From Acidobacteriaceae bacterium (lineage in GTDB: Bacteria > Acidobacteriota > Terriglobia > Terriglobales > Acidobacteriaceae), in the NCBI GenBank assembly GCA_043782485.1, contig JAYWAL010000023.1, positions 38,336 through 102,335 of the forward strand: a stretch of 64,000 nt of DNA. The letters run 5' to 3'. Under the pieces are notes generated by a model. The model had not been told where the DNA came from, did not search any database, and saw only the letters and a list, made by a program, of their open reading frames with translations. Below, piece after piece: positions 902 through 64,000 of the stretch; the first letter of the stretch is position 1, and every line of letters starts with the position of its first letter. Made by a program: the position numbers and the translations under genes.

Positions 902-1648
902 CTAGTTCCCCAGCGAAAAAATCACGCTGATTTTGGTGTCCACCTCAATCGGATCGCCGTTCAGCACATACGGCCGGTAGCGCCACTGCTTCACCGCATT
1001 CAGCGCCGCTCCCACCAGCATCGGATGCCCCTTGAGAATTTGCAGATTTTCAATCGTGCCCTGCTTGCTGATGAGCGCGGCAATTTCCACCGGGCCTTGA
1101 ATGCGAGCCCGCTTCGCCAGCTCCGGGTAGTCCGGCTGCACGCGATGAACCAGATAGCCGTCCATCATCACCGAGACCCGCACCGGACGGGCTGGCTTGG
1201 GTAACGCCGGTGGAACCGCCAGTCCTAAAATCGTGACGCCACCGGGGACGCCCGTTTCCGGAACGGCCACACCCACGCACTTCGCGCACGGAGCCTCGGC
1301 TTCCGGCGGCGCGGCGGTATCGGGACCAAGCGCAATGGTCTTAGGAACTTCGCGCGGTACGGTGAAAGCGTTCGTGCGGGGCGACGCGGAAACGCTCGCG
1401 GACGATGGCGACCGCACCGCTGGGGCTTCCACATGCGGAAGAAAGATGGGCACCAGATGCGGCGTCAGGTTCAGGTTTGGCAGTAGGCTGGGCTGCAACA
1501 ACGGAATCAGCAGCACCACGGTCACAGCCGTGGCTTGCAGAGTAAAAGACGTGAGCGTAGCCCATCCTCGGCGCGGATTGGGCAGCGTAAATTCGTGGGC
1601 GATGGTCAGCATGACGGTGGCCTCCTGGCAACTCTCCAGATTGGACAC
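902..1648 (-). CDS. TonB family energy transducer (C-terminal TonB_C domain)
   Basis: 248-aa ORF with an N-terminal TM segment and a Pro-rich linker. The C-terminus YPELAKRARIQGPVEIAALISKQGTIENLQILKGHPMLVGAALNAVKQWRYRPY is typical of TonB_C. Confidence 0.8.
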   Translation of the reverse strand: MSNLESCQEATVMLTIAHEFTLPNPRRGWATLTSFTLQATAVTVVLLIPLLQPSLLPNLNLTPHLVPIFLPHVEAPAVRSPSSASVSASPRTNAFTVPREVPKTIALGPDTAAPPEAEAPCAKCVGVAVPETGVPGGVTILGLAVPPALPKPARPVRVSVMMDGYLVHRVQPDYPELAKRARIQGPVEIAALISKQGTIENLQILKGHPMLVGAALNAVKQWRYRPYVLNGDPIEVDTKISVIFSLGN

Positions 1649-1745
1649 CGCTCATCGCCCGGAAAGTTCCAGGCTTGATACAAGAAAAACGGACCGCGAG
1701 TTAAGCGGTCCGTCGGGAACTTTTCGTACTGTTCCAGTGTCTGAG

Positions 1746-2378
1746 TTAGTTAGGTTTCGGCGCGGCGGGCTTGGGCGTCGCGGCCTTAGGCGCGGCGGCA
1801 GCCGGTTTCGCCGGAGCGGGCACGTCCGATTGGGCATTGTAGGCATCGACCACGGCCTTGGTCAGGTCGGTGGTGTCATTCGCCCAAATCAATTCGCCTT
1901 CCGGCCAGGCGCGCGTCGCATCCAGAATCAAGCCCAGGCCATTGTCCTTGGCGTACTTATTCACCACGGGAATCATCTTCTGGACAATCTTTCCGGCAAT
2001 CTCGTTCTGCTGCGCTTGCAGTTCGCTCTGCGCGTCTTCGCTGGAGCGCGTCAGGGTCTTCTGCTTGGCTTCAATCTTCTTCACCAGTTCGGCGCGGGCG
2101 TCGTCGTTCAACTTCGAACCCTGCGTGTCCAGCTGCTTCTTCAAACTATCCAGTTCATCGCTCAGGTTCTTGAGTTCGGTGCGCTTGGGTTCAAACTTCT
2201 TGGCAAGACCGTCGAAATCACGCTGGCCTTCGTTGGTGGCGACAATGGCGGTTTGCATGTTGATGATGCCAACCTTGGTCCCGCCAGCCGTGGTGGCCTG
2301 GCCCAGCGCCAAGGGTGACAGCGCCAGAGATGACAGTAAGGTAGCAGCCAGAATTGCAGGTGCGAACGTTTTGCTCAT
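1746..2378 (-). CDS. skp: OmpH/Skp periplasmic chaperone
   Basis: 210 aa with a signal peptide and a long coiled-coil-like KxxELxxL region. It lies immediately downstream of bamA, which is the conserved arrangement. Confidence 0.85.
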   Translation of the reverse strand: MSKTFAPAILAATLLSSLALSPLALGQATTAGGTKVGIINMQTAIVATNEGQRDFDGLAKKFEPKRTELKNLSDELDSLKKQLDTQGSKLNDDARAELVKKIEAKQKTLTRSSEDAQSELQAQQNEIAGKIVQKMIPVVNKYAKDNGLGLILDATRAWPEGELIWANDTTDLTKAVVDAYNAQSDVPAPAKPAAAAPKAATPKPAAPKPN

Positions 2379-2652
2379 GGTATTAGCTTGAACTCCTTGG
2401 ATTTTTTCCGGAAAATTTGGAAGCCTCTCAGGCGCTTGCCGGACTGCTCGCCGCGGGCTCCCACTAGTGGAGGACGGGAACCGGCCCGCTCTGGGTCAAT
2501 AACTTGCCGCTGTCTACCTCTTTGCAACGACGCAGGCGCGTACCCCCCAAGTATAGTTGCCTCCTCGTGCCAGCGTCAAACGAATCGGAATCACCATCAC
2601 CACGCAGGGGCAGGCGCCCTCGCCTGCCCAGCAAGAAAAAATCTCACCCATC

Positions 2653-5598: not shown

Positions 5599-5743
5599 AG
5601 GCGTATCCTTATGAAAAAAGATGGCTCTACCTCAATCCGTAGGGGTTAGGCAAAACTTGAATTATACGGTAGGTTCCGGGTAACTGCGTAATCCGTACCA
5701 GGGAAAAACCGCCGCTAGCTGTCCTGTTTGCGAGTGAGCTTCG

Positions 5744-5769
5744 TATCAGGGCACCGCTTCAGCGGTGCC
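5744..5769. repeat. REP-like tetraloop hairpin GTATCAGG-GCACCGC-TTCA-GCGGTGCC
   Basis: 8-bp stem ggcaccgc/gcggtgcc with a ttca loop. A second copy in reverse orientation sits at 41428-41454 with compensatory stem changes. Confidence 0.7.
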
Positions 5770-5846
5770 GCAAGGGGTTGTTTTGAGCGCGCCTTCAGGC
5801 GCTGGGTTTTGAGATTTGCATTGAACCCGGCTCCTTACCCGGCTTC

Positions 5847-7964
5847 TTAGACGACTGACCGCACTAACTCCACCTCAACCAAGACGGAATAAAACGTTGC
5901 GGAGTTGCCTAGGTCGGTAAGTTTTTCTGAGGTTAAGGCGTTTATATTTTTTCCTCCGGCGGAAAGCTTGGCCCAGTTCAAGCGCGACGCCACCGTCCCC
6001 GGCTGCACCGAACCGTTCACATGCGCTCGCAGGATCAGGTCTCCCCGGTCGTTGAAGGTGCGCACTGAATCGCCATGCTGAATCCCACGAGCCAGAGCAT
6101 CGGCAGGCGCTATCTCTAACAAACCAGTGTCCTCCAGCTCCGCCACGGAGGGCGTATTGCAGAAAGACGAATTCAGGAAGTTGTCCGCTTTGCGCGCCAG
6201 CAGCTCCAGGGGAAACCGCTTCGCCGCCGCCGTGTGGCGGGATTCCTCCGGCGGCTCAAACGACGCCACCGGGTCCAGACCAGCGTTTTTCAGCTGTTCG
6301 CTGTAAAACTCAGCCTTGCCGCTGGGAGTGCCGAAGTTGCCTTCCGCAAATGGTTGAAAAGGCAGGGGCTCGCCGTTGTTGGCCATCCCGCTACTGAAAT
6401 TCAGCCGCGCATGCCCTTCTTTCTCGAGCCGCGCCCGGTCGATTCCCTTGAGCCTTGGCCCGCCCCCGGCAATGGCCCGGTCGATCATGCTGTCGTCCGT
6501 CTCGGTAAATTCACTCCCTGTAAAGCCCATGCGCGCCGCCAAGGCACGGAACAGGTCCACGTTCGACCTGCACTCCCCCAAGGGCTGGATGGCGGGCTGC
6601 GATACCTGCAAATAATAGTGGCCGTAAGACTGGACTAAGTCCTTGTGTTCAAAGAACGTAGTTGCCGGCAGGACAATATCAGCGTAGTCGGTGGTGTCGG
6701 TGAAAAACTGTTCGTGAACAACAGTGAATAAGTCCTTTCTTTTCAATCCGGCGATCACCAGGTTGTGGTTCGGAGTCACCGCCGCCGGGTTACAGGCATA
6801 GACGAACAAAGCCTGCACCGGAGGGTCGTTCGTCTCGGTTAGCGCGAGGCCGAGCCGATTCATGTTGATAACCCTCGCAGGACGCCCTAGCGGGCTCTCT
6901 GAGGCCATCAAGTCGGTTCGTTCGAGCGCATCCCTGTCCAGCCCAAACGACCCGCTGAGGGACATCTGGAGGCCTCCACCGACGTCTTTCCACGACCCCG
7001 TCAGGCACGGAAGCATGGCAACCGTCCGGGTGGCCATCCCGCCCCGTTCAGAGCGCTGGACACCGTAGTTGAGGCGAATTACGGCTGGCCGGGTGGTCGC
7101 GTATTCGCGAGCGAGCTTGCGAATGTCGTCGGCCGAGATTCCCGTCCATTGAGCGGCGCGTTCGGGGGGATATTCCTGGACTTTCGCCCGTAACTCATTG
7201 AAACCATGGGTGTACCGCGCTACATAGTCGGCGTCATGGAGGTTTTCGTTGATGATGACGTGCATCATGGCCAACGCCAGCGCGGCGTCGGTTCCTGGAT
7301 TGATGGGCAAATACCAATCCGCAGCGGCGGCGGTGCGGGTCTTGTAGGGGTCGATCACCACCAATTTGGCGCCCTGGCGGCGGGCCTCGGTGATAAACGG
7401 CCACAAATGCACGTTGTTGCCGTGGATGTTGCTGGCCCACGCGATGATGTAGCGCGACTCGCGGAACTGCTCCGGCTCGGTGCCCATTTTGACGCCCAGA
7501 ACGGACCTCAGGCCCGCTTCCCCGGCCGCCGAACAAATGGCACGTTCCAACTGGGATGCACCCAGGCGGTGGAAGAATCGCCGGTCCATGGAGCCGCCGT
7601 TGAGGACGCCCAGGGTCCCGCCGTAGGAATAGGGCAGGATCGACTCCGGTCCGTGCTCGGCGGCAATACTCTTCAGGCGCGAGGCAATTTCGTCGAGGGC
7701 TTCCTCCCAGGAAATGCGGACAAAATCCTGGCCGTTGCGATGGCCTTCGCCTTTGGGAGCCACGCGACGCATGGGGTAGAGCACGCGATCCGGCGAATAC
7801 ACGCGGTCCAGATATTTTGTGACCTTGGCGCAGAGAAATCCGCGCGTGACCGGGTGCTTGGGGTCGCCCTGGAGCTTAGTGGCGCGGCCGTCTTCCACTG
7901 TGATGAGGACTCCGCAGGCATCTGGGCAGTCGAGCGGGCAGGCGGCGTGGACTACGGACTTCAT
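5847..7964 (-). CDS. molybdopterin (bis-MGD) oxidoreductase family protein, cytoplasmic type
   Basis: 705 aa. N-terminal 4Fe-4S motif CPLDCPDACG...C, then AICSAAGEAG (Cys at the likely Mo-ligand position), then a C-terminal MopB barrel-like region. No twin-arginine signal. Confidence 0.85.
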   Translation of the reverse strand: MKSVVHAACPLDCPDACGVLITVEDGRATKLQGDPKHPVTRGFLCAKVTKYLDRVYSPDRVLYPMRRVAPKGEGHRNGQDFVRISWEEALDEIASRLKSIAAEHGPESILPYSYGGTLGVLNGGSMDRRFFHRLGASQLERAICSAAGEAGLRSVLGVKMGTEPEQFRESRYIIAWASNIHGNNVHLWPFITEARRQGAKLVVIDPYKTRTAAAADWYLPINPGTDAALALAMMHVIINENLHDADYVARYTHGFNELRAKVQEYPPERAAQWTGISADDIRKLAREYATTRPAVIRLNYGVQRSERGGMATRTVAMLPCLTGSWKDVGGGLQMSLSGSFGLDRDALERTDLMASESPLGRPARVINMNRLGLALTETNDPPVQALFVYACNPAAVTPNHNLVIAGLKRKDLFTVVHEQFFTDTTDYADIVLPATTFFEHKDLVQSYGHYYLQVSQPAIQPLGECRSNVDLFRALAARMGFTGSEFTETDDSMIDRAIAGGGPRLKGIDRARLEKEGHARLNFSSGMANNGEPLPFQPFAEGNFGTPSGKAEFYSEQLKNAGLDPVASFEPPEESRHTAAAKRFPLELLARKADNFLNSSFCNTPSVAELEDTGLLEIAPADALARGIQHGDSVRTFNDRGDLILRAHVNGSVQPGTVASRLNWAKLSAGGKNINALTSEKLTDLGNSATFYSVLVEVELVRSVV

Positions 7965-8178
7965 TTTTTGAATGATAAACGATTCCGGAAGTGGGAGGTC
8001 AACTGCGATTCACCACGGAGGCACGGAGAGAACCATACGAGGTCGGAGAGGAGACCACACAATCCAGCTTTGCCATGATTTGGAAACTGGAAAGCCCCGC
8101 CCTCTTTCGCAAAGAACGCGAAAGAAGGACGGGGCACCCGGTTGGGTTGTTGGCTTCAAATGGCGGTTTGTCTTTCCG

Positions 8179-11100
8179 CTACTTGATCACCTGTTTCAAA
8201 ACCAGCGATGTGCTGGTGGCGTAGTTGGCATTGCCCGAATAGACGGCTGTGATCGAATGCGTGCCTACACTCAGCGTCGATTTGGTGATCGCCGCCTTGT
8301 GCGTACTCGTGTTGATCGTAGCCGTACCCAGCGTTGCGCCGCCGTTCTTGAACGTCACCGTTCCAGTAGCTCCCGGGGTCACCGTTGCGGTGAAGGTTAC
8401 TGCTTTGCCGCTCTTGGCTGGGTTGAGCGAAGAGACGAGTGTGGTTTTGGTGGCTGCCTTCTTCACCGTTTGTGAGAGGGCTGCCGAACTGCCCGCGACC
8501 GTCGAGCTACCGCTGTAGACGGCCGTGATCGCATGCGCTCCCGTGATTAGCGAAGAAGTGGTCAGCTTCGCCTTTCCAGCGGCCACGGCCGCTGTTCCCA
8601 GCGTTGCCGCGCCGTTCTTGAACGTTACGGTTCCGGTGGCCGTCGCCGGAGATACCGACGCGGTAAACGTAACCGCTTGCCCGAACGACGAAGGATTCAG
8701 CGAAGAAACAACCGCCGTGGTGGATTTTGCGAGCACGGTGAAGGTGGCTGACTTGCTGCCTTCGACGTTACCCGCGCGATCTGTGCTATGGAACGCAATC
8801 GTGTGATGGCCCGCCGCAGTCACAGCCAAGGTGCCCGCGTAGGTTTTCACAGCTCCGCCATCGAGTTGGTAAACCGTGCTGGCCACGCCGCTCAGGCCAT
8901 CGCTCGCGCTCAAGCTGACTTGAACGGGATTCTTGCCCGTGAAGCTGGCCCCAGTTACGGGAGCGGTTTCATCAATATTGACCGCACCAGCTTGCTGGGA
9001 TTGCACGTTGCCAGCAATATCCTGGCTGAAGAACGTGAACGTATGTGCACCCTGCGCCGCTATGGCTACCGGAGCACTGTACGGCACGCAGGCACCAAGG
9101 TTGAGCGACGTACATGCCGGATTGTCCACCGCGTAGTAGCTGGCGGCGATGCCCGAACCCGTGGAACCAGCCCCGGGATCATTCGGAAGCACCGTCAGCT
9201 GCACGGAGGAATTGTTCCAGCCGGACACATTCGGACCGGGTGATTGCAGGTCCGTCGTCGCCGGGGCGATTGTGTCATAGCAAACTGGGCCGTAGGTCTG
9301 CACCCCGCCCCAGCCCGCGTTGTCCCAGGCGTGAACGAAGACAGTATGGCAGCCCTGGCTAACGCCACCGGAACAGCCACCGCCACTTACCAGTTCCAGA
9401 CAGCCGGTTGTGCTGTTGGGAAACTGAGGACCGCTATAGAAAGAATTACCGGAGCCCGGTGTGGCTTGGCTGTAGGCATCCCCCGGATCGGTATCCCAGG
9501 CCTGACTGAACCCGGCTACGCCAGTAGCGGGACGGCTGTTGCCCGTCGTATCCGCCACCGACCAACTCACGATCTGGTTGGAGTTGTACCAGGTGTTCGT
9601 GGTCGGTCCGGTGAACGTAGTGTTCGGAGCGCCGAAGTCGCCCGCGAGGTACGTATTGATGGACCAGGCGAGTTGTAGGGCGTTGAATGAGCCCCATCCG
9701 GTCGCGAGATCATAGCCACCGAAAGCGCAGTAGGAGCCCAACGCATTGGCCGCAGTGATGTCGTTGCTGTTGCATCCCGAGGTGATGTCATAGAAGGGAT
9801 AGTGCCCGGCGTACGGAGCATTCAACCCTTCGTAATACATGTACCAGTTGGGATTGCCCATGGGGGCGCAAGCACCGTTGCCGCAGGTATTGCCGACGAA
9901 AACCTGGTTCTCGTAATAGAGATAGGCGTTTTCCTGGGCGAAGAATCCGGCCAGTTCCGGGGCTACGATGCTGGTACCGCCGACGCCGCGCAGGACGCCG
10001 CCGAACATGTAGTTCTGCCCTATGGCTGCATTGAGCGAGACATCGGGGACGCTGCGGCTGCCTGTTCCGCAAGAGGGATTGCTGCCCTGATAGCCAGGCG
10101 CGGCAAACTTCTGACTGCAACCGCCACCACCGCCACCGTTGTTGCCAGCGCAACTGCCCGCTCCGGTACCGCCGGTCCAGGCGACTTCGCTGTTGTAGGT
10201 GGAATCGGAGTTCAGGAACAACGTGCTACCGCCCGCGGAGACGAGATCGGGATCGGAACCAGGATAGCTGACGCTGATGGTGGAGCAATCCGAGGTGGCA
10301 CCATGGTCGTGCGAGATGCCGACCAGCGACCAGCCCTGGCCGACCATGGCGTTGAAGATTCCGTGGTCGGTATCCATGGTGCCATTGTCGGCGCAGGAAA
10401 ATTCCGTGCAGCCCCAGCTCACGCTCATGGTGCGCGCATTACCGTCGGCCAGCATGTGGCTGTAGATATCGGTAAAGGTTGTGAGCAGGTTGTTTGCGCC
10501 CTGGTAAATGAACACAGACGATGTGTTTTGGAACGCGCCAAAACTGTTGGACATGGCAGTGGACCACTCGAAGTCGAGCGTTCCTTCGCTGTCGCAGCAG
10601 ACCGGAGTGCCATCAATGGGAATGGTGAACCAGTGATAGGCCAGGTAAGGGTACTGCGCCTGGAACAGGGCGAAGTCGTTGGTATCCTGCGCCCCCGCCG
10701 TGGCGATGGCAATGGAAGTGACCGGAGGTGTTCCGCCAGCGTTGTTAAAAGGATTGCAGCAATGCCCTTGCGCGTAAAGCGCATTGAAGTCATAGGCATT
10801 GGACCCATAGAGATCGGTCGGGTCATAGAAGCCGCTGGTGATGCCGGTTTTGATTTTGTTCTTGGACGCCTTGATCGCCGTCGCCAACTTCGCGTGGCTG
10901 CCGTTGAGGCCGCCCGAGGTCATTGCGCCCTTGGCGGGTCCAGCGGAGTAGCTCGGCATGGCTGGTTCCACCGCGTTGCGCAGGCCGGGCTTCATGGCCT
11001 GCATGTCATTCAGGCCCATGACGGAATGCACCACTCCGGCCACGCTGCCCGCGATTTGCGGCGCGCGGTCATTGGAGAAATGCACTTCCGCTCCGACCTG

Positions 11101-11529
11101 ATAATTGTTGATGGTGACGTTGAAGGCCTTTTCCATGGAAGCCACGGTACCTTCCAGATCGACGACAAGACGATGCGGAAAGCGGTTGGACACTTTGAGA
11201 CCCTGGCTCTTGGCCCAATCGACTACGGCTTGCTCGTCCTGCTGGGTGGGTCCGAAACGGGTATTCCATTCGGCTGACGTGAGGAAGTGGTGGAACTCTT
11301 TGCTGCCCTTGGTGTGCAGATCGCTGAGGAATTGCTCTTCGGCGTCCGGATGGGGGCGCTCGAGGCCAATGACCACGCGTAAGGCCTGGCTGGGACTGGT
11401 GTGTTGGATCAACTTGGCGGAACCGTTGACGACGGAAAGTGGAACACCGGCCGAAGGATCGGTAGCGGCGCTGGCGCTCAGCGGTAGAAGAGCTGAGAAC
11501 AGGGCGAGGATGACTGCTTTGAAACGCAT
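8179..11529 (-). CDS. secreted S53 (sedolisin/pro-kumamolisin) peptidase with C-terminal Ig-like repeat array
   Basis: Start re-set to ATG 11529 (MRFKAVILALFSALLPLSASA signal peptide). Pro-kumamolisin-like activation segment (RVVIGLERPHPDAEEQFLSDLHTKGSKEFHHFLT). Catalytic-Ser motif GVGGTSIVAPELAG. The tail has repeated TFKNG(A/G)ATLGTA...H(A/S)ITAVYSG Ig-like modules. Confidence 0.85.
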   Translation of the reverse strand: MRFKAVILALFSALLPLSASAATDPSAGVPLSVVNGSAKLIQHTSPSQALRVVIGLERPHPDAEEQFLSDLHTKGSKEFHHFLTSAEWNTRFGPTQQDEQAVVDWAKSQGLKVSNRFPHRLVVDLEGTVASMEKAFNVTINNYQVGAEVHFSNDRAPQIAGSVAGVVHSVMGLNDMQAMKPGLRNAVEPAMPSYSAGPAKGAMTSGGLNGSHAKLATAIKASKNKIKTGITSGFYDPTDLYGSNAYDFNALYAQGHCCNPFNNAGGTPPVTSIAIATAGAQDTNDFALFQAQYPYLAYHWFTIPIDGTPVCCDSEGTLDFEWSTAMSNSFGAFQNTSSVFIYQGANNLLTTFTDIYSHMLADGNARTMSVSWGCTEFSCADNGTMDTDHGIFNAMVGQGWSLVGISHDHGATSDCSTISVSYPGSDPDLVSAGGSTLFLNSDSTYNSEVAWTGGTGAGSCAGNNGGGGGGCSQKFAAPGYQGSNPSCGTGSRSVPDVSLNAAIGQNYMFGGVLRGVGGTSIVAPELAGFFAQENAYLYYENQVFVGNTCGNGACAPMGNPNWYMYYEGLNAPYAGHYPFYDITSGCNSNDITAANALGSYCAFGGYDLATGWGSFNALQLAWSINTYLAGDFGAPNTTFTGPTTNTWYNSNQIVSWSVADTTGNSRPATGVAGFSQAWDTDPGDAYSQATPGSGNSFYSGPQFPNSTTGCLELVSGGGCSGGVSQGCHTVFVHAWDNAGWGGVQTYGPVCYDTIAPATTDLQSPGPNVSGWNNSSVQLTVLPNDPGAGSTGSGIAASYYAVDNPACTSLNLGACVPYSAPVAIAAQGAHTFTFFSQDIAGNVQSQQAGAVNIDETAPVTGASFTGKNPVQVSLSASDGLSGVASTVYQLDGGAVKTYAGTLAVTAAGHHTIAFHSTDRAGNVEGSKSATFTVLAKSTTAVVSSLNPSSFGQAVTFTASVSPATATGTVTFKNGAATLGTAAVAAGKAKLTTSSLITGAHAITAVYSGSSTVAGSSAALSQTVKKAATKTTLVSSLNPAKSGKAVTFTATVTPGATGTVTFKNGGATLGTATINTSTHKAAITKSTLSVGTHSITAVYSGNANYATSTSLVLKQVIK

Positions 11530-11901
11530 GACTATCTCCTGAGATTGCGGGGGTGCGGAGTGGACAATGCATGCTGAAGGCCAACGCCGGTTCGGCGGAA
11601 TCCAGCGGCTCGTTGTGCCTATCGTCGTGCCATCGTCGTGCCTATCAAAGCGGCTTAAGAGCCTTTGCAGCAAGGGGTTTCCCTGAGGATGCGGAATAAC
11701 AGGCCCTGACAATGACGTGTTCTAAGAAGACGAAATTAGGGTGCTCGTTGGCAAACGAATCGTCTAGTTGCGTATCTCTTTGGATAGGAAAGTAGAGACC
11801 CGGCGGACTGCTGTGTTATCCAGCGGCGACCACCTGGCGTTCGATAGCACGAAGAGTGTTATGATTTCCGTCCCCCCTACTTATTGCTCAGGAGAATAGT
11901 C

Positions 11902-12768
11902 ATGAAAAACCTCATGCTTGGCGTAGCTATGCTTGCATTGTGCTCGTCGAGCTTCGCCAATGATTCGAAAACGACCAGCAACAACGCCTCCCGTGAAGCA
12001 GCGGCGGTGGCGGCCCAGAAGGCAGCGGCGGAATCCGCGCCGCACAGTCTGGCAGCCACCAGCACCTGCTCCTACAACTTCACTTCCGGCACCAATAAGA
12101 CGTTTCTGAGTTTTTGTGTCACCGTGAACGGCAATATCGCCCAACTCGCGACTCCGGTCGCCCGGGAACACATTGCGGTGGCAACTGCCGGCGAAGGCTA
12201 CGGCGTGTGCGACAACGCGGCAGGCGTCGCCTATTTTGACTATGCCGGCTATGGCGACAGCGGCAACTGGGGAGCGCCCACGCTGGTCAGCCAAACCGCG
12301 ACGGCGGTGAAAATTGCGCGCACGACCAGCGACGGCGTGTTTACGCTGACGCAAACCATCACAAAAGTTGCCAGCCCTCCATCCGTCAATGTGGCGATGC
12401 TGCTCAAGAACAACACGGCGGTTGCCAGAAGCATATTTCTCATACGTTATGCCGATGTGGATGTGAGCGGCACGACCAGCAACAACTTCGACGCCACCGA
12501 CAGTAGCGCGTTCGGTTGGAACTCCAGCGGCAGCAGCACGCCGCCGTTTGGTCTGGCGATCCAGAACGTCGGCAACCCGGTGGGGTTCGCCAATGTCCTT
12601 CCGCTTGCGCAAAACGTGCCTACAGGACCCAACGCATGCATCCCCGGATTAAATGAGGTTTTTGGGCAACCCGCGCTGGCGACGGATGGCTCCATAGCTA
12701 TCGTTTACGAGGGATCGGTACCGAAGAATGGAACGCGGACGGTGACAATGACCTACCGGGGACTGTAA
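11902..12768 (+). CDS. hypothetical secreted protein
   Basis: ATG 11902 preceded by GGAGA. Signal peptide MKNLMLGVAMLALCSSSFA. No family recognised. Confidence 0.5.
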   Translation: MKNLMLGVAMLALCSSSFANDSKTTSNNASREAAAVAAQKAAAESAPHSLAATSTCSYNFTSGTNKTFLSFCVTVNGNIAQLATPVAREHIAVATAGEGYGVCDNAAGVAYFDYAGYGDSGNWGAPTLVSQTATAVKIARTTSDGVFTLTQTITKVASPPSVNVAMLLKNNTAVARSIFLIRYADVDVSGTTSNNFDATDSSAFGWNSSGSSTPPFGLAIQNVGNPVGFANVLPLAQNVPTGPNACIPGLNEVFGQPALATDGSIAIVYEGSVPKNGTRTVTMTYRGL

Positions 12769-12775
12769 AGCCGGG

Positions 12776-12810
12776 AAAGCCGACTCCGGGTGGGGTCGGC
12801 TTTTCTACTT
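12776..12810 (+). terminator. putative intrinsic terminator after 11902..12768
   Basis: Stem aaagccgac/gtcggcttt with a 10-nt loop, followed by a U-rich tctactt. It begins 8 nt after the TAA stop. Confidence 0.45.
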
Positions 12811-12835
12811 GCTGGCAGTGTTGGCTCGACGCGCG

Positions 12836-12862
12836 CGGGCGGGGATGCCCGTGCCTCCATCG
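12836..12862. repeat. 27-bp dispersed motif CGGGCGGGGAYGCCCGKGCCTCCATYG (copy 1 of 3)
   Basis: Near-identical copies at 40201-40227 and 48498-48524, all in the same orientation. Contains the small hairpin cgggc/gcccg. Confidence 0.7.
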
Positions 12863-12874
12863 GTTGCAGGCGGG

Positions 12875-13465
12875 CTACTTCAGCTCCAGCACTTCTTTCT
12901 CTTTGTTCTTGCTCATCTCTTCCATCTTGCGAATTTCGTCGTCGGTGAGCTTTTGGATTTCATCGAGGGAGCGCTTTTCTTCGTCCTCGCTGATTTTCTT
13001 GTCTTTCATCGTCTTCTTAATTGCGTCGTTGCCGTCGCGGCGGATGTTGCGGACGGCGGTGCGGTGCTCTTCCAGAATTTTGTGGAGATGCTTGGCCATT
13101 TCCTTGCGACGCTCTTCGGTGAGCGCGGGGATGGGCACGCGGACGACTTTGCCATCGTTCATGGGATTGAGGCCGAGATCGCCGCCACGGATGGCTTTTT
13201 CAATCGCCGGAAGCACGCTGGGATCGAACGGCGTAACGGAGATCAGTTGCGGCTCGGGCGCATGGATGGTGGCGACCTGGTTGAGCGGCATGTTCGAGCC
13301 GTAGGCTTCGACGACGATGTTATCGAGCATGGAAACCGAGGCGCGTCCCGTGCGCGTAGCCGACATTTCCTTGCGGAAGGCTTCAACGGCCTTGTCCATG
13401 CGGGTTTTGAGCTGGCCTTGCAGCTCGCGCAGTGCGGGGATGGTGGCCATTACGGATTGCGCCAT
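12875..13465 (-). CDS. frr: ribosome recycling factor
   Basis: 196 aa. Motifs RTGRASVSMLDNIVVEAYGSNMPLNQVATI and LGLNPMNDGKVVRVPIPALTEERRKE are typical RRF sequence. It lies downstream of pyrH. Confidence 0.95.
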   Translation of the reverse strand: MAQSVMATIPALRELQGQLKTRMDKAVEAFRKEMSATRTGRASVSMLDNIVVEAYGSNMPLNQVATIHAPEPQLISVTPFDPSVLPAIEKAIRGGDLGLNPMNDGKVVRVPIPALTEERRKEMAKHLHKILEEHRTAVRNIRRDGNDAIKKTMKDKKISEDEEKRSLDEIQKLTDDEIRKMEEMSKNKEKEVLELK

Positions 13466-16409: not shown

Positions 16410-16805
16410 TTATCTCTTGCTGAACTGGAAGCGTTTACGAGCGCCCTTCTGGCCGTACTTCTTGCGCTCTTTGCCACGCGGATCGCGTGAGACCATGCCC
16501 GCAGCCTTGAGGACCTTGCGCAATTCCACATTGAAAACCATCAGCGCGCGGGCAATGCCCATCTTCACGGCATCGGCCTGACCATTCACGCCGCCGCCTT
16601 GCACCGTGGCGATCACGTTGAACGTTCCCGCCGTTTCGCTGGTCGCCAAGGGCGATTTTGCTGCACCGCGTTGCGCGTCGGTCACAAAGTATTCTTCGAA
16701 CGCTTTGCCATTAACCTTGAACTCGCCGCTGCCGGGACGTAAAAACACACGGGCAACCGCCGTCTTGCGGCGTCCCGTTCCGTAATATTGAACTAGTTCA
16801 GCCAT
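16410..16805 (-). CDS. rpsI: 30S ribosomal protein S9
   Basis: Start re-set to ATG 16805 ([20 protein letters not shown]). The C-terminus ...[18 protein letters not shown] is canonical. Confidence 0.95.
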
Positions 16806-58082: not shown

Positions 58083-60821
58083 CTAATTCGCGCTATCCAG
58101 CCCACTGAGGGCGCTACGCAGCTTTTCGTTCAGCACAATCAGCTCTTGCGCGCGCTTGCGCATCTTCTCCACAATATGAGCGGGGGCCTTGGATAAAAAC
58201 TCTACATTCCCTAACTGATTGTCGAGGTTGGTCTTCTCTTTTTCGGCACCAGCCAACTCCTTGACCAGCCGCTTGCGTTCCGCCTCCACATCAATCTTTT
58301 TCTCATACACCACGCGAACTTCGAAGCGGGCCGTGCTCCGCGCCCCAGGCAACTTGGCCAGCGAAGCTTCCACAAAAGTGACCTTCTCCACGCCCGCCAT
58401 GCGCTCCACGGCGCTCCGGTTCTGCTCCACCAGCGCGCGAATCTCGGCGTTGGCATAAATTTGCACGGGAACTTTTTCCTTGGGCTCCACCTTCAAATCC
58501 GCGCGCAGGGTGCGAATGCTCACAATCAAATCCTGCAAAATGGCCATGCTGGTTTCCGCCGCGACATCCATTTGCGCCGGGTCCGCCTGTGGAAATGCCG
58601 CCAACGCAACCGACTTCAACGCTGGCTTTCCTTCATAAATCGCATGCCAAATTTCTTCCGTAATGAACGGCATGAACGGATGCAGTAGCCGCAGGGAAGC
58701 CTCAAACAGCGCCACCGCGTTTTGCGAAGCCGTGCGCACCGTGCCCGCGCTGGTATCGCCAAGGGCCACGCGCGGCTTCACCAACTCAATGTACCAATCG
58801 CAGAACTCGCCCCAGAAAAAGTCGTAGATGCAATTCGCGGCCTCATGGAAGCGGAATCCCTCTAACGCCTGATGCACTTGCGCGGCCACGGCGTTAAAAC
58901 GCGAAAAAATCCAGCGGTCTTCGAGGGTTAGGACCTGGCACCCGCTCAGCGTGGCACCAGGCTTCCCGTCCTTCAGAGTCTTCCGGAAATCATCCAGCGA
59001 CCAGATTCCAGCCTGCTGCGCCTTGTCCACATTCATGAACAAAAATCGCGCTGCGTTCCAAATCTTATTCGCAAAGGCCCGGTATCCCTGCGTGCGATCC
59101 GAATTGAAGGCAATATCCGTCCCTGGAGCAGCCATGGCGGCCAGCGTAAACCGCGTGGCATCCGTACCATACTCCGCAATCACCTCAATCGGGTCAAGGA
59201 CGTTGCCCTTGGTTTTCGACATCTTCTTGCGCTCGGCGTCGCGCACCAGCGCGTGGATATAAACCTGCCGAAACGGAACGCTGCCTTGCGGGTGGTCCGC
59301 CATGAAGTGGCAGCCCAGCATAATCATCCGCGCCACCCAGAAAAACAGAATGTCCGATCCCGTAATCAGCAACGATGCCGGATAAAACACTTCCTGGTCG
59401 CGTGATTTCTCCGGCCACCCAAACACGCTAAACGGCAGCAGTCCTGACGAAAACCACGTATCCAGCACATCCGGATCCTGTTGCAGGCTCGTGCTTTTGC
59501 AGTGCGAACACTGCTCCGGCACCTCGCGCACTACAAGAATGGTCTTGCAATCCGAGCAAGTCCACGCCGGAATCCGATGCCCCCACCACAATTGCCGCGA
59601 GATGCACCAGTCGTGGATATTCCGCATCCACTCGAAGTATGTTTTGGCGTAATTCTCCGGCGTAAACCGGATCTCGCCTTTCTCCACCGCTTCAATCGCC
59701 CGTTCCGCCAGTGGAGCAATCTTGATGAACCACTGCGTCGAAAGCCGCGGCTCCACCACCGTCTTGCAGCGGTCGCACTTACCCAGCGCAATCACGTGGT
59801 CTTTCTCGCTATCCAGCAGCCCTCGTTCCCGCAAGCCCTGCAACACCCTTTCCCGCGCCACGAAGCGGTCCAGCCCCGCATAGGGTCCGGCATTCTCATT
59901 CAGATGCGCCGTATCGTCCATGATGTCGATCTGCGGCAGCAGATGCCGCAGTCCCACCTGGTAGTCGTTGGCATCATGCGCCGGAGTAATCTTCACCGCG
60001 CCAGTTCCAAATTCTGGATTCGCAATATCATCCAGAATCAGCGGAATCTGCCGGTCCGTGAGCGGCAGTTGCAGCATCTTTTTATGCAGATGGGTATACC
60101 GCTCATCCTTGGCGTTCACCGCCACGGCCGTATCCCCCAGCATCGTCTCCGGCCGAGTCGTCGCCACCACCAAATATTCCTCTGAGCCCACTACCGGATA
60201 CCGAATGTGATAAAGCTTCCCCGGCGTATCCTCATGCACGACTTCCAAATCAGATATCGCCGTCATGCACCGCGGACACCAATTCACAATGTACTTGCCG
60301 CGGTAAATCAGCCCCTCTTCATAGAGTCGTACAAACGCCTCGCGCACCGCGCGAGAAAGGTTGTCGTCCATGGTGAAGTATTCGCGGCCCCAGTCCACCG
60401 ACGCGCCCAGCCGCTTCATCTGGTCCTGAATCGCGCCGCCGTACAGCTTCTTCCACTCCCACACGCGATGGATGAACGCCTCACGGCCAAGCTGCAATCG
60501 CGACTGACCTTCCGTCGTCAACTGCCGCTCCACCATCATCTGCGTCGCAATGCCCGCGTGGTCCGTGCCCGGCTGCCATAGCGCTAGAAAGCCCCGCATG
60601 CGATGCCAGCGCGTGATGATATCCATCTCCGTCTGGTTCAGCATGTGGCCCATGTGCAGGCGCCCCGTCACATTCGGAGGCGGCAACAACATGCTGAATA
60701 CCGGACGCGCATCGCCCTCCGCCGGAGTCGGCGTGGCAAACAGCTTTTCCTGCACCCAGTATTCCGCCCAGCGCGCTTCAATCGCGCCCGGCTCATACGC
60801 TTTGGAGAGTTCGTCAGCCAT
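58083..60821 (-). CDS. valS: valine--tRNA ligase
   Basis: 912 aa. HIGH-type PPPNVTGRLHMGHML, KMSKS (KMSKTKGN), and a C-terminal coiled coil. Confidence 0.97.
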   Translation of the reverse strand: MADELSKAYEPGAIEARWAEYWVQEKLFATPTPAEGDARPVFSMLLPPPNVTGRLHMGHMLNQTEMDIITRWHRMRGFLALWQPGTDHAGIATQMMVERQLTTEGQSRLQLGREAFIHRVWEWKKLYGGAIQDQMKRLGASVDWGREYFTMDDNLSRAVREAFVRLYEEGLIYRGKYIVNWCPRCMTAISDLEVVHEDTPGKLYHIRYPVVGSEEYLVVATTRPETMLGDTAVAVNAKDERYTHLHKKMLQLPLTDRQIPLILDDIANPEFGTGAVKITPAHDANDYQVGLRHLLPQIDIMDDTAHLNENAGPYAGLDRFVARERVLQGLRERGLLDSEKDHVIALGKCDRCKTVVEPRLSTQWFIKIAPLAERAIEAVEKGEIRFTPENYAKTYFEWMRNIHDWCISRQLWWGHRIPAWTCSDCKTILVVREVPEQCSHCKSTSLQQDPDVLDTWFSSGLLPFSVFGWPEKSRDQEVFYPASLLITGSDILFFWVARMIMLGCHFMADHPQGSVPFRQVYIHALVRDAERKKMSKTKGNVLDPIEVIAEYGTDATRFTLAAMAAPGTDIAFNSDRTQGYRAFANKIWNAARFLFMNVDKAQQAGIWSLDDFRKTLKDGKPGATLSGCQVLTLEDRWIFSRFNAVAAQVHQALEGFRFHEAANCIYDFFWGEFCDWYIELVKPRVALGDTSAGTVRTASQNAVALFEASLRLLHPFMPFITEEIWHAIYEGKPALKSVALAAFPQADPAQMDVAAETSMAILQDLIVSIRTLRADLKVEPKEKVPVQIYANAEIRALVEQNRSAVERMAGVEKVTFVEASLAKLPGARSTARFEVRVVYEKKIDVEAERKRLVKELAGAEKEKTNLDNQLGNVEFLSKAPAHIVEKMRKRAQELIVLNEKLRSALSGLDSAN

Positions 60822-60943
60822 GATTGCTCTAGTGACAGTAACGCTCGGGTGGACTTGCCGCCCACTCGAGACAGACGATTATTTGTGCGATTGGGTAACT
60901 TTTGATCTTACAGGCGCGAGGAAAACTCGGTCAAACGCTAGTC

Positions 60944-60990
60944 GGGATAGGAGGTAGAGCGATTTGAAACTGCCCTCGTTACCGAGTGGT
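60944..60990 (+). repeat. left terminal inverted repeat
   Basis: gggataggaggtagagcgatttgaaactgccctcgttaccgagtggt. Confidence 0.9.
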
Positions 60991-61107
60991 AAACAGTTGG
61001 GCAGGGCGTTCGCGAGATAGCGGGGTGGGGCCGGAGAGGCCGTCTTCTAAAATTGGCGGTGCTCCCAAGCAATCGCAGATTCGGTTTTGCGCTTAGTTGC
61101 TTCGTCC

Positions 61108-61602
61108 TCAGCGAACTGGATGCAGTTCTCCCTTCAGGGCCATCTGATAGAGCTGGTCGGCGGTTTTGTAGTTGCGATCACTCAGCACCTTCATGAGATT
61201 CACGAAAGCGATGCCTTGGTATTCAGGATGTTTTGTGTAGAACTCCGTGATCACATCTGTGTATGCGGTTACGTCGAGACCTGAAGCCTCGGTGTACTTG
61301 GCCTTCGAATATTCCTCCATGCGAGCAAGACAGCGGGCCGAGGGCATTTCGCTGGGATGGTGCTCATCACCAAGACGATACCCTTTACCGGGTTTGCCAA
61401 AGAGCTCTTGCGCTACTTCGCATGCACTGTGGGTTCCTTGTCGATACCCCGCTACGAAACCATTCACGAACGTAGCGCGTTCTCCCGGATTCCAAGACAG
61501 CCATTCTCCGCCTCTGTCAATCTGTCCTGGTTGTGGGTGAGCTGTCGCGAAGATGGCGAGAACAACAAGTGCCCCGGCTGCTGCTAAGTATTTTGCTAAC
61601 AC
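61108..61602 (-). CDS. hypothetical exported protein, immunity-like by position
   Basis: GTG 61602 with AAGGAG 9 nt upstream. It starts 33 nt after the toxin-tip stop. N-terminal hydrophobic segment MLAKYLAAAGALVVLAIFATA. No family recognised. Confidence 0.4.
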   Translation of the reverse strand: MLAKYLAAAGALVVLAIFATAHPQPGQIDRGGEWLSWNPGERATFVNGFVAGYRQGTHSACEVAQELFGKPGKGYRLGDEHHPSEMPSARCLARMEEYSKAKYTEASGLDVTAYTDVITEFYTKHPEYQGIAFVNLMKVLSDRNYKTADQLYQMALKGELHPVR

Positions 61603-61635
61603 GTGAGCTGCTCCTTCTGCTTCTCGAAACTGTAG

Positions 61636-62479
61636 CTAAGGAACCGCAGAGTACACGGGTCGTGCCCCCATCTGCTTGATCACCACGTGGACCTCCCAGG
61701 TTTTGATCAGAGTTCCCTTGTTATTTCCTACTATCAGTTGCACTCGCTTACCATCGACAAGCCAGTGCTGGTTGAAGTTCTTTGCCTCGGGTGAGATCTG
61801 TTCGTGGATCACTCCCGTACCTGGCTCCCCGGTTGGCCTAAAGGGGCCACCATTAACCGACTCAACGAGGGCAATGTTCTGCTTCACGTTGGCGGACGAC
61901 TGCGAGCATATACTTCCGGCACAGGTCCCAGCGTACCAGTCCATTGTCCAGGAAGCGAACAGCTCTCGGCCGGGCCTTGGGGTGAATTCTCGACCGTAGA
62001 GCACGACGTCGGTGCGAGAGTTAGCCGGGGCGGGGATCAGAGCTGGGTCGGTGCGGACTCCGGCGGGGTCGGGTGTCGCTGGCTGAGGCGGTGCAGTAGG
62101 GTCCTGCTGCTGTTGCGGCGAAGTCGGTGCGGGCGTTGACTTATCGCTCGCATTCGCGCTAGGCGTCGGCTTGGTTTCTGCGGAGGCAACGGGGGCATGA
62201 ACTCCAGGAAGGCCAAGCTGCTCCCGTAATCGGCCCCCACCTCTGCCGCCGATCCGTCCATCAAGCCATTTCCGCCCGCGCACCCCTTCTCAGTCGGACA
62301 GGAAAATCCGTGCCCATCCGGGTCCGTCCCGGTGATGGGGTTGTTCTCCACGTAAGCATACAAGTTGAGGGTCTGCGGATTGCCCATTACTGCTTAGGGA
62401 ATGGCCACGGGCGTGGCGCTCCAGTCCGGTGTCAGGAAGCGTCTAAACGTCGACGAGTAGTACCGCGCTCCGAAGTACC
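61636..62479 (-). pseudogene. orphan Rhs/YD-repeat core tail plus variable C-terminal (toxin-like) domain, disrupted
   Basis: The translation is WYFGARYYSSTFRRFLTPDWSATPVAIP-TAA-AVMGNPQTLNLYAYVENNPITGTDPDGH. This is the Rhs core end motif, with the TAA (62394-62396) at the usual VPYA Tyr position. A frame change is then needed inside 62037-62283, plausibly at the G5 run 62191-62195. That joins it to ...DVVLYGREFTPRPGRELFASWTMDWYAGTCAG...VIKQMGARPVYSAVP. Confidence 0.6.
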
Positions 62480-62523
62480 ACTCGGTAACGAGGGCAGTTT
62501 CAAAGTGCTCTACCTCCTATCCC
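62477..62523 (-). repeat. right terminal inverted repeat
   Basis: The plus strand reads accactcggtaacgagggcagtttcaaagtgctctacctcctatccc. This is the reverse complement of 60944-60990 apart from 2 adjacent mismatches. Confidence 0.9.
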
Positions 62524-62531
62524 GTCAAACG

Positions 62532-64000
62532 CTAGTCCTTCTTCGCCGCCAGCTTGCGCGCAATCTCTTCCACCAGCTTCGGACGCATCTCCGCCAACAC
62601 GCTATCCACAATGCTGGCAATCGATGCCGCATCATGCCCGCCGTCAAGACTCGCAGGCTGATGCGTCAACTCTTCCGTTGCCACCGTCGCCGCAACTTCC
62701 GCCAACTGCTCAGTCAAATTCGGCGTTACCAGAGTATTGCGAATTTCCCGCCAGTTGGTCCAAGCCGCATTCATCTGCGACTTGGTCCGCGAATCAATCT
62801 CATCGTCAGGAGCCGACGTATCCCGCGAAGGCGCTCCCGAACTGCCATTTGAAACATCCGGCGCGACACCCACTCCCGCGGCCGATGCCACGGGCCGCAA
62901 ATCCTGGAAGCCCGCCGACCCAAATCCTAGGCTTTCGCCTGATGCGCTTGCCGCCAACGCCGCGGGCGCTTCCGCTACCGCATGTGTCGTCGCCTGCTCC
63001 ATTGCAATCGCTTCAGCAGCCGCCACTTCGGAAACAATCGGCTCGTCATCCACCGGTTCCGGCGCGGCGCTGTCGACAAAATTCGCCAGACTATAGGTAT
63101 TAAACGTCTCTGCCGGGGCCCCCGTTCCCAGAGCCTCCTGCATTTCTCGCTCCAGGCTAGCCGACGCCTCGGACTGCGTCAGCTCCGCCCCCTCCGCTAC
63201 CCAGTGCGTAGCCGCCGCGACGGGCACAGCCTGCGGCACTACTTCTGGAACACTTGCAACCAGCTGCGGTTCCGAAATACGCTCAGCCACGCTCTCTTCC
63301 GGCGCTTCTTCCGGCGGAGCTTCTTCCGGCGACGTTTCTTCCGGTTCTGGAGCCAGTTGCCGCGGCAGCCCATCCGCCGCCACGTGCAGCATGGGCGCGC
63401 GATCTCCTTCGCCGCTCAGCACTTCCACCGCCGCCTTGATCGCGGCAATCTCTTCCGGAGAAATGTCCAAAGCCGCTTCCGCTGGAGATACCACTGCCGT
63501 TTCCGGAGCCTGAGCTGGCATCGCGTCGGCCGTAAAGGCACTCTCCCGCCGCAAGGTCGCTTCGTCCATCGCAGGCTCGGTCAGGTCGCGAAACCCGGTG
63601 CCTGTGCGGGCAGCAACGTCGTTCCCCGCCAGATTCTGCCCACCGGGATCAGCGTCCGCAGGCTCCGCCGAAGCCTTCTTCTTCCCCGGCATGCCCAAGC
63701 GGTTCTTCCAACCTTTTTCTTCAATGCCCGCTTCTTGCGCCTCTGGCGCATCCGCCGTCGAACCCGCAAACGCACGGTTCGGCGCGCTCGCTTTCGGTGC
63801 TTTGGCTGGCTTTTTTTCCGCCTTTGTATTCGCATCTTCAATCTTGCGAATGACCGCCAGCAGCTCCGTGGCCTCAAAGGGCTTCACAATGAACGCGTTC
63901 GCCCGCGCCTTCAGAGCCTCTTCAGACTTGAACGGCTCCAGCTTTCCCACCGTCAACAGAACGGGAAGATCGGCTGTCTCGCTGTTCTCTTTCAGGATCT
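62532..64000 (-). CDS. response-regulator receiver-domain protein with a long Ala/Pro/Glu-rich C-terminal extension; the N-terminus is outside the window
   Basis: The frame stays open to the window end: ...ILKENSETADLPVLLTVGKLEPFKSEEALKARANAFIVKPFEATELLAVIRKIED, the C-terminal half of a CheY-like receiver. About 400 low-complexity residues follow. The stop CTA at 62532-62534 lies inside the right 14-bp duplication. Confidence 0.75.
   Translation of the reverse strand, partial: ILKENSETADLPVLLTVGKLEPFKSEEALKARANAFIVKPFEATELLAVIRKIEDANTKAEKKPAKAPKASAPNRAFAGSTADAPEAQEAGIEEKGWKNRLGMPGKKKASAEPADADPGGQNLAGNDVAARTGTGFRDLTEPAMDEATLRRESAFTADAMPAQAPETAVVSPAEAALDISPEEIAAIKAAVEVLSGEGDRAPMLHVAADGLPRQLAPEPEETSPEEAPPEEAPEESVAERISEPQLVASVPEVVPQAVPVAAATHWVAEGAELTQSEASASLEREMQEALGTGAPAETFNTYSLANFVDSAAPEPVDDEPIVSEVAAAEAIAMEQATTHAVAEAPAALAASASGESLGFGSAGFQDLRPVASAAGVGVAPDVSNGSSGAPSRDTSAPDDEIDSRTKSQMNAAWTNWREIRNTLVTPNLTEQLAEVAATVATEELTHQPASLDGGHDAASIASIVDSVLAEMRPKLVEEIARKLAAKKD

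Follow-up and report, generated by a model that had tools for sequence, protein, structure and literature searches.

A probable casposon remnant with an Rhs-type toxin tip at the valS promoter of an acidobacterium, and the casposon group that shares its ends

We analysed a 64-kb stretch of DNA (the window) from an Acidobacteriaceae bacterium (assembly GCA_043782485.1, contig JAYWAL010000023.1, positions 38,336 to 102,335), in which a 1,580-bp element lies between valS and a response-regulator gene. The element contains open reading frames (ORFs) and is bounded by terminal inverted repeats (the arms) and a 14-bp duplication. The original prediction regarded it as a vehicle for Rhs tip cassettes that resembles a miniature inverted-repeat transposable element (MITE). 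Our data indicate instead that it is very probably a non-autonomous remnant of a casposon, without Cas1 and PolB. Casposons are self-synthesizing transposons integrated by a Cas1-family casposase, here through cuts staggered by 14 bp, and duplications of this length are a hallmark of casposons. The assignment follows from the termini and the duplication of the window element, both of which are shared with Cas1-encoding elements.

The two arms, at 60944-60990 (plus strand) and 62477-62523 (minus strand), are complementary at 45 of 47 positions, and at 46 of 48 when one further base is included; the mismatches between them fall at arm positions 18-19. Just outside the arms, the 14-mer GTCAAACGCTAGTC is repeated in direct orientation with 14/14 identity; the window contains it at 60930 and 62524 and nowhere else. 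A search of the window with up to three mismatches found the arm only at its two known places, where shuffled sequences lead one to expect none. Neither Cas1, PolB, a transposase nor an integrase was detected between the arms or elsewhere in the 70.8 kb examined, which comprise the window and 6.8 kb more of the 305.8-kb metagenome contig ERZ27314314 k141_285167 (locus L001; fetched loci are cited by such L numbers and proteins by P numbers). An Rfam scan of 60700-62700 at E<=1 returned no match, which means that the arm is no known RNA. The element is thus a true insertion of the transposition type, bounded by terminal inverted repeats and flanked by a duplicated target site, and the original description of its repeats, its perfect duplication and its lack of a transposase or integrase was accurate. 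The interior had also been described as more AT-rich than its surroundings, which proved incorrect: the GC content of the whole element is 57.4% versus 58.6% for the window, and the immunity-like gene alone is lower, at 53.1%.

The interior, followed on the minus strand from the right arm inward, consists of an Rhs core tail, a linker, a C-terminal domain, a 164-aa ORF and 111 nt of G-rich DNA. The core tail is translated as YFGARYYSSTFRRFLTPDWSATPVAIP, a stop codon and AVMGNPQTLNLYAYVENNPITGTDPDGH... Homology to Rhs proteins begins at the F of YFGARYY (62474), immediately internal to the right arm, as had been noticed before. Where the arm encodes FETALVTEWY, Rhs homologues show HDTETNDDYFGARYY, and where it encodes ...FETALVTEWYFGARYY, close homologues have ...HEHDTETNDDYFGARYY; the similarity ends exactly at the arm, and the arm is therefore not rhs sequence. 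In tblastn comparisons, frame -3 gave an almost identical alignment with protein P0011 between 62474 and 62175, in which a TAA (62394-62396) replaces the Tyr of P0011, and the toxin domain aligned in frame -2 from 62070 to 61639, which places a frame change between 62175 and 62070. The DPDGH and core tail (a DPxGH/L-type motif) are present, interrupted by the TAA and out of frame with the C-terminal domain. Because of the nonsense codon and the frameshift, the Rhs tip is a pseudogene. The cassette of an Rhs tip and an immunity-like gene that had been predicted is thus present, and its immunity-like ORF is open; the tip itself is not intact.

The toxin-like domain is 68-71% identical to the C-termini of the Rhs-associated proteins P0001, P0004 and P0012, and this C-terminal domain is common to the short 'RHS repeat-associated' proteins P0001-P0010. 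Members of the family are also seen as stand-alone ORFs of 161-169 aa (P0004, P0012). An AlphaFold2 model of the domain (61639-62070) is all-beta with 12 strands (predicted local distance difference test score, pLDDT, 90.6); a Foldseek search with this model against the PDB gave nothing below E=0.004, with template modelling (TM) scores of ~0.3, and Pfam gave no match on the three interior ORFs. The 164-aa ORF may have an immunity role, judging from its position. A weak homologue (25% identity, E=5e-8) is encoded in the Cas1 locus L115, downstream of an ORF of at least 1428 aa whose tail matches the Rhs core-tail query. In agreement with the earlier description, no full-length rhs gene was found in the window, and no second copy of the element, the toxin domain or the immunity-like gene was found in any fetched locus.

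Table. Features of the element and of its surroundings, in window coordinates
Feature	Coordinates	Strand	Remarks
valS, host gene	58083..60821	-	context only; left neighbour; its promoter is the target
valS promoter-like site	60905..60934	-	-35 TTGACC (60934-60929), 18-nt spacer, -10 TAAGAT (60910-60905)
Left 14-bp target-site duplication GTCAAACGCTAGTC	60930..60943		fits group target GTCAA-N9
Left terminal inverted repeat (casposon terminus)	60944..60996	+	52/53 to group consensus; 48 nt pair with right arm
G-rich non-coding subterminal stretch, 111 nt	60997..61107		similar DNA inside most other terminus copies
Immunity-like ORF, 164 aa, intact	61108..61602	-	hydrophobic N-terminal segment; 3' of toxin domain
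Toxin-like C-terminal domain (APANSRTDVVLYGRE...VYSxVP)	61639..62070	-	frame -2; Rhs-associated protein homology
Rhs core tail (YFGARYY...NLYAYVENNPITGTDPDGH) and linker	62175..62477	-	frame -3; 5'-truncated at arm; TAA 62394-62396
Right terminal inverted repeat	62476..62523	-	truncated at position 48, rhs sequence from there
Right 14-bp duplication copy	62524..62537		holds regulator stop codon 62532-62534 (minus strand)
Response-regulator gene, 554 aa, 3' part	62532..64000	-	context only; runs off window; right neighbour

The arm is not unique to this locus. Scanning one genome per species (GTDB) with the arm pattern GGGATAGGAGGTAGAGCNNTTTGAAAC recovered 32 stretches from about 28 metagenome-assembled genomes, nearly all of them Acidobacteriota (Terriglobia/Terriglobales). 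Conservation runs past the query bases to about position 53 (...CTGCCCTCGTTACCGAGTGGTAAACAG) and gives way to variable G-rich DNA. In dozens of loci without rhs nearby, the arm goes on as ...GTAAACAG followed by G-rich DNA. The group terminus can be written as GGGATAGGAGGTAGAGCGTTTTGAAAC. The left window arm agrees with the group consensus at 52/53 positions and the right arm at 46/48; both depart from the otherwise near-invariant consensus at positions 18-19. The 14 nt external to the arm read GTCAA-N9 or N9-TTGAC, as would be expected if an asymmetric target of 14 bp had been duplicated around each element. This pattern or its complement fits 39 of the 42 ends (G in 36, T in 39, C in 37, A in 39 and A in 38 of the 39), and the other nine positions are variable.

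Two discrete terminus variants, which alter three positions jointly, are seen at arm positions 28-31 among ~40 copies: AAACTGCCCTCG in 25 and AAACCGGTCTCG in 13. They probably mark sub-lineages with co-evolving casposases.

Other cargo, for which the original prediction had proposed to look, was found between arm pairs. On a single contig, L026 and L030 carry perfectly matching 14-mers (GTCAAACCGGAGGG) and delimit an element of 4,987 bp with four cargo ORFs, no transposase and no Cas1; we take them as adjacent chunks because an ORF reads across their junction. Similarly, L006 and L016, also from one contig, carry perfectly matching 14-mers (GTCAAGCGTTGAGG), giving an element of ~2.7 kb if the chunks are contiguous, and the L016 part of this arm-bounded element contains another Rhs tip and a small membrane ORF. 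The third case, L074, is described below. All-against-all BLAST of the ORFs inside the ~30 arm-bearing genome loci revealed no shared protein and no common transposase. This lack of a shared protein briefly suggested that the arms were solo repeats, a reading that was dropped once Cas1 and PolB were recognised in L011.

The Rhs tip of L016 belongs to a 521-aa ORF (L016:76-1638, plus strand), in which ~195 aa of an IS5/IS1182-like transposase N-terminus continue in the same frame into an Rhs core tail with its toxin tip; a membrane ORF of 167 aa comes next. It is a second case of an Rhs tip abruptly joined to unrelated DNA in a casposon-derived element.

Internal to the arm, L011 encodes family-B polymerase fragments (motif A YTDFLSMYPT; Pfam DNA_pol_B_2, 9.5e-6) and Cas1 (Pfam, 7.6e-15); in L037, the L011 casposon is interrupted by the contig end. 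When a Cas1 alignment was used to scan the metagenomes of the Joint Genome Institute (JGI), at least 551 stretches proved to encode relatives, and 80 loci were kept. PolB stands alongside Cas1 in 40 of these 80 loci, most of which are short contigs. The first Cas1 contexts (L034-L036) have no canonical arm, and L036 has a diverged terminus at the same valS position. Cas1 on the inner side of the terminus was also found in L011/L037, L076, L088 and L118, in addition to L074.

L074, a contig of 16,721 bp, is the clearest example. The terminus occurs at 1225 (plus strand) and at 16558 (minus strand), a perfect 34-nt inverted repeat is the sole long repeat of the contig, and the 14-bp duplication CACCCCCATTTGAC flanks the termini on both sides, with 15.3 kb enclosed. 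Its Cas1 comprises 516 aa with a C-terminal helix-turn-helix (HTH) domain (Pfam Cas_Cas1, 6e-41). In a comparison confined to the PDB, the best match of this protein was 6opm (2.8e-20), which we take to be the casposase of Methanosarcina mazei, with the Cas1 4n06 of a CRISPR (clusters of regularly interspaced short palindromic repeats) system at 1.8e-18; no CRISPR-like repeats were found in L074. The PolB is intact (1009 aa), contains the Exo I (FDTET), A (YTDFLSMYPT), B (KVLANAASYG) and C (MEDTDSM) motifs, and is 93% identical to the L011 fragment. Three small conserved ORFs and cargo of the AAA-TIR and HATPase types make up the other content, and no HNH gene was detected. L074 is an autonomous casposon. 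The original prediction had proposed to look for an autonomous element with the same ends plus a transposase; an autonomous element exists, with the same terminus and a 14-bp duplication, and its enzyme is a Cas1 casposase, not a classical transposase. Therefore, the arms of the window element are the terminal inverted repeats of an Acidobacteriota (Terriglobia) casposon group, and the 14-mer is the target-site duplication of that group.

One cargo protein of L074 (10989-13829, minus strand; 946 aa) combines the Pfam domains RNA polymerase alpha C-terminal domain (RNA_pol_A_CTD) and sigma-70 region 4 (Sigma70_r4). We considered this protein as a general promoter selector and rejected it, as it is absent from all other Cas1 loci.

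Several other loci extend the picture. L044 contains a complete element (1366-13119) with a perfect 14-bp duplication (GTCAAACGTGAGCA) on both sides, at a valS promoter; its termini are imperfect variants that are loosely alike (GGGATTAGGAGGTAGGAG... versus GGGGTGGAAGGAACGGACGGCAAAACTGCC). In L120, a variant terminus with a GTCAA-N9 duplication abuts a Cas1-containing contig. L065 shows, in order, Cas1 (5116-6666), a full-length Rhs protein of 1539 aa (RHS_repeat, 1e-21), a 180-aa membrane ORF and a terminus abutting GTCAAATTGCAGTG. L115 encodes Cas1 together with the long ORF and the homologue of the window's immunity-like ORF mentioned above. The architectures of L065, L115 and L016 show that rhs-immunity modules are recurrent casposon cargo next to the terminus.

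Removal of the element and one 14-mer restores the junction between the regulator and valS, as had been proposed, and empty sites of this kind exist. In the relatives L124-L128, whose regulators are 63-67% identical, the regulator-valS spacer is uninterrupted (125-134 nt) and contains ...GTTTGACCGCGTTTTCCTCGCGCCTGTAAGATCAAAAGTTACCC; the window sequence without the element and one 14-mer aligns base for base to this spacer block. In L129 (GCA_936415365.1), the same terminus stands at the orthologous position after the regulator stop codon, with the target-site duplication GTTCGAAGTTTGAC, and other genes extend over 6 kb or more beyond it, so that a larger element occupies the position there. 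Termini or Cas1 genes adjacent to valS were found in at least 12 loci, and full-size casposons lie at the valS promoter in L074, L044, L088 and L036. The valS promoter is thus a recurrent landing site.

In the window, the GTCAA-N9 target takes in the -35 box of the valS promoter together with 9 bp upstream of it. A promoter scan across 60700-62700 returned a single sigma-70-like site, TTGACC-18-TAAGAT on the minus strand, the -35 box of which falls inside the left duplication copy. The site is kept in the empty-site relatives and at other valS-adjacent loci. The duplication keeps the valS promoter intact and leaves in place the regulator stop codon, which, as correctly noted in the original prediction, lies inside the duplicated 14-mer. 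Moreover, the GTCAA that is conserved in the duplications coincides with the -35 box of a sigma-70-type promoter directed away from the element. Reading outward from TTGAC, 19 of 20 host-type flanks (from L005, L006, L008-L010, L013, L015, L017, L018, L022, L023, L025, L027, L029, L031, L074, L088, L118 and window 60905-60943) have a TANNNT hexamer after a spacer of 17-18 nt, namely TAAGAT, TAATAT, TAGAAT, TAGACT, TACCAT, TAAGCT or TAAACT. Taken over every TTGAC in these loci, the background frequency is 5.2% (binomial p ~1e-23). Of the 20 flanks, nine or ten are orthologous valS promoters, and among the ~10 other sites nine have the hexamer. The sequences therefore suggest that the acidobacterial casposon group targets promoters, not merely the pentamer GTCAA. 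The casposon paper examined on this point does not mention promoters.

How the window element arose can be proposed from its architecture. The parent would have been a full-size casposon with a full-length rhs gene and an immunity gene beside one terminus, as in L065. A single internal deletion may have begun at position ~48 of that terminus and stopped ~100 codons short of the end of the rhs core, removing Cas1, PolB and most of rhs, and leaving a terminus, the rhs tip, the toxin domain, the immunity-like gene, the subterminal DNA and the other terminus, an outcome that matches the arrangement in the window exactly. That the Rhs tip starts at the arm edge is most likely due to this joining of terminus position ~48 to the 3' part of rhs. 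Subsequently, the Rhs tip would have decayed through the nonsense codon and the frameshift, and the immunity-like ORF would have stayed open. We somewhat favour a deletion in situ after integration at valS over a deletion elsewhere followed by mobilisation in trans, and the element is most likely a relic that decayed in place.

Several points weigh against this assignment to the casposons. The window element itself has neither Cas1 nor PolB, these genes were also missing from the 70.8 kb of contig, and the assignment is made through the termini and duplications of other elements. A parent element with this toxin was not recovered among the loci, and the deletion is deduced. The deviation of the arms at positions 18-19 fits a dead relic and is not proof of one. 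The Pfam match of the PolB is marginal (25.2 bits versus a cut-off of 25.8) and phmmer of the L074 PolB against PDB sequences found no match; the PolB call rests mainly on motifs, plus the Pfam match of the L011 orthologue. Finally, the action of the casposase on these termini is a prediction.

We also weighed whether the element might be a still-mobile miniature casposon, similar to a MITE or a mobile insertion cassette (MIC), which was deleted elsewhere, integrated at valS through a casposase acting in trans and serves as a vehicle for the toxin-tip/immunity module. Both termini and a perfect duplication are kept, other Cas1-less arm-bounded elements exist (L026/L030 and L006/L016, the latter with another Rhs tip), and elements with common subterminal sequence occur at different target 14-mers in different genomes, all of which would suit such a vehicle. 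However, the fetched loci hold no second copy of the element, its toxin domain or its immunity-like gene, the genome scan returned no closely spaced arm pair other than that of the window, the arms are off consensus at positions 18-19 and the cargo is a pseudogene. Moreover, the valS promoter is recurrently hit by full-size casposons, so in-situ decay needs no extra event. Nothing shows movement of the 1.58-kb unit itself, and we consider this explanation unlikely. The MITE-like vehicle of the original prediction is not upheld, as the ends are those of the casposon group, the tip is a pseudogene and no second copy was found. A MITE would be short, lack coding sequence and recur in many copies per genome; the element measures 1,580 bp, contains ORFs and was found once in the window and not at all in the scans.

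An origin as a classical MITE or mobile insertion cassette from an insertion sequence (IS) with a DDE transposase, the model implied by the original prediction, is very improbable. Families such as IS1182, IS481 and IS1634 can give long duplications, the element has inverted repeats and a direct repeat without a transposase, and IS5/IS1182-like transposase genes lie inside two arm-bearing loci (L016 and L024). These two transposases were nevertheless rejected as the parent enzyme: that of L024 belongs to an IS of its own with separate 18-bp inverted repeats, that of L016 is a truncated fragment, and the two are 31% identical to each other. Furthermore, no transposase is common to the interiors of the ~30 arm-bearing loci, and Cas1 is the only integrase consistently linked to the arms. 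The original prediction had itself offered another reading, in which the left arm is what remains of a second rhs fragment in inverted orientation and the two arms form an inversion substrate; we weighed it together with a use of the pair for inversion or recombination in toxin switching. The right arm does abut rhs coding sequence, and its translation FETALVTEW is faintly like the xETGL motif that precedes YFGARYY. This reading is refuted by the Rhs homologue comparison, in which close homologues have HEHDTETNDDYFGARYY and their similarity ends exactly at the arm, and by the distribution of the arm over dozens of loci without nearby rhs; it would also leave unexplained the 14-bp duplication and the group-wide GTCAA-N9 flanks, and we give it next to no weight.

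The window element and its relatives can be compared with known systems. As described by Krupovic et al. 2014 (PMC4046053), casposons encode Cas1 and PolB, are bounded by terminal inverted repeats of 25-602 nt, produce target-site duplications whose median length is 15 bp, and contain diverse cargo as well as nested IS copies. In M. mazei, the casposons produce 14-bp target-site duplications in which the terminal 4 nt are conserved, occur as tandem arrays with a common duplication and leave solo terminal inverted repeats as remnants; bacterial casposons lie in intergenic DNA, and families 2 and 3 have an RNA-primed PolB (PMC4779613). Like the M. mazei family 2 casposons, the relatives of the window element have terminal inverted repeats of ~50 nt, a 14-bp duplication with a short invariant end (CGCA there, GTCAA here), repeated, sequence-specific use of one site, tandem arrays with a common duplication, decayed copies, a varied cargo of defence and accessory genes, and a Cas1 bearing a C-terminal HTH. 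Unlike known casposons, the window copy is without Cas1 and PolB, the hosts are soil Acidobacteriota (hosts not mentioned in the casposon literature examined), no HNH gene was detected in L074 and the targets appear to be promoters rather than the 3' ends of tRNA or aEF-2 genes. Additionally, the only Pfam match of the group's PolB is to the protein-primed type DNA_pol_B_2, unlike the polymerases of families 2 and 3. The group shares a bacterial host and intergenic integration with the bacterial family 3 casposons (Henriciella, Hyphomonas, Streptomyces, Citromicrobium, 'Ca. Acetothermum'); those have been described from 'a handful' of genomes, and our metagenome scan, by comparison, yielded 551 or more Cas1 relatives; the group is not assigned to a family here. 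The M. mazei solo repeats (PMC4779613) are non-coding or gene-poor remnants of full casposons that were degraded at their original target site. The window element is probably a similar remnant, but it keeps both termini and the duplication, with 1.5 kb of residual cargo between them.

Similar comparisons apply to non-casposon systems. MITEs and MICs (e.g. MIC231 of Bacillus cereus) are transposase-less, have the inverted repeats of their parent and a flanking duplication, and MICs carry passenger genes. The window element resembles them in these respects and differs in that its parent enzyme would be a Cas1 casposase, not a DDE transposase, a single copy was found and mobilisation in trans was not seen. 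Orphan Rhs tip/immunity modules are known from the rhs loci of Salmonella and Serratia. The same order of a 5'-truncated core tail, a variable C-terminal domain and a small immunity-like gene is present here; unlike those modules, it is not downstream of a full-length rhs gene, it lies inside a transposon remnant and its tip is a pseudogene. A literature search on casposons with Acidobacteria, miniature forms or Rhs found nothing relevant.

The window locus itself is modest, being most likely a dead relic and no new toxin-cassette vehicle, and its interest lies in the abundant acidobacterial casposon lineage that it revealed. A single metagenome scan yielded 551 or more Cas1 relatives, and the lineage combines sharply delimited ends, a specific 14-bp target that overlaps promoters, copies that are complete, degraded or arranged in tandem, and Rhs and defence cargo. 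A wider proposal, which we put forward tentatively and regard, all parts taken jointly, as rather doubtful, is that soil Acidobacteriota harbour an abundant, undescribed group of bacterial casposons with a Cas1-HTH and a protein-primed-type PolB, whose casposase would select sigma-70-type promoters and duplicate the -35 box plus 9 bp, and whose Cas1-less miniature forms, mobilised in trans, would shuttle Rhs and defence cargo. Casposons are regarded as ancestors of the CRISPR adaptation module. If the proposal were true, the group would represent a natural case of leader (promoter)-adjacent integration, reminiscent of spacer insertion beside the CRISPR leader. The group offers a concrete bacterial system for studying how a Cas1 integrase reads a 'leader-like' flank. 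Casposons carrying polymorphic-toxin (Rhs) cargo are likewise a feature of which we found no mention in the literature searched.

Some further observations concern the arrangement and hosts of the terminus copies. At several junctions of the form '...CCTATCCC, 14-mer, GGGGT...', a second, different terminus type faces the first across one shared 14-mer (L043:1311-1390; L120:9640-9740; L037:3300-3345; and flanks of L012, L020, L028, L030 and L033), with GGGGTGAGAAYA..GGAATATGCA, GGGGTGGAAGGAAG.GCGGCAAAACTGCC and GGGGTAGTACACTTCGGGAAAAATTG as examples. These junctions suggest tandem arrays of related but distinct casposon lineages. L022 carries two terminus copies in the same orientation, 6.2 kb apart (L022:194 and L022:6402); the second is diverged (88.7% identity over 53 nt, blastn) and has no GTCAA-type 14-mer before it. 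The IS of L024 (5215-6767; 1.55 kb, IS5/IS1182-like transposase, inverted repeats GTGGGTGTTGAAAAAGTC) is nested ~145 nt inside a casposon terminus. Finally, one arm-bearing contig (L004) is labelled Candidatus Micrarchaeota, and L021 (Pyrinomonadaceae) is identical inside the arm, over ~260 nt read plus shared ORFs, to the Acidobacteriota contig L014 from another study; both oddities could be due to mis-binning or recent transfer.

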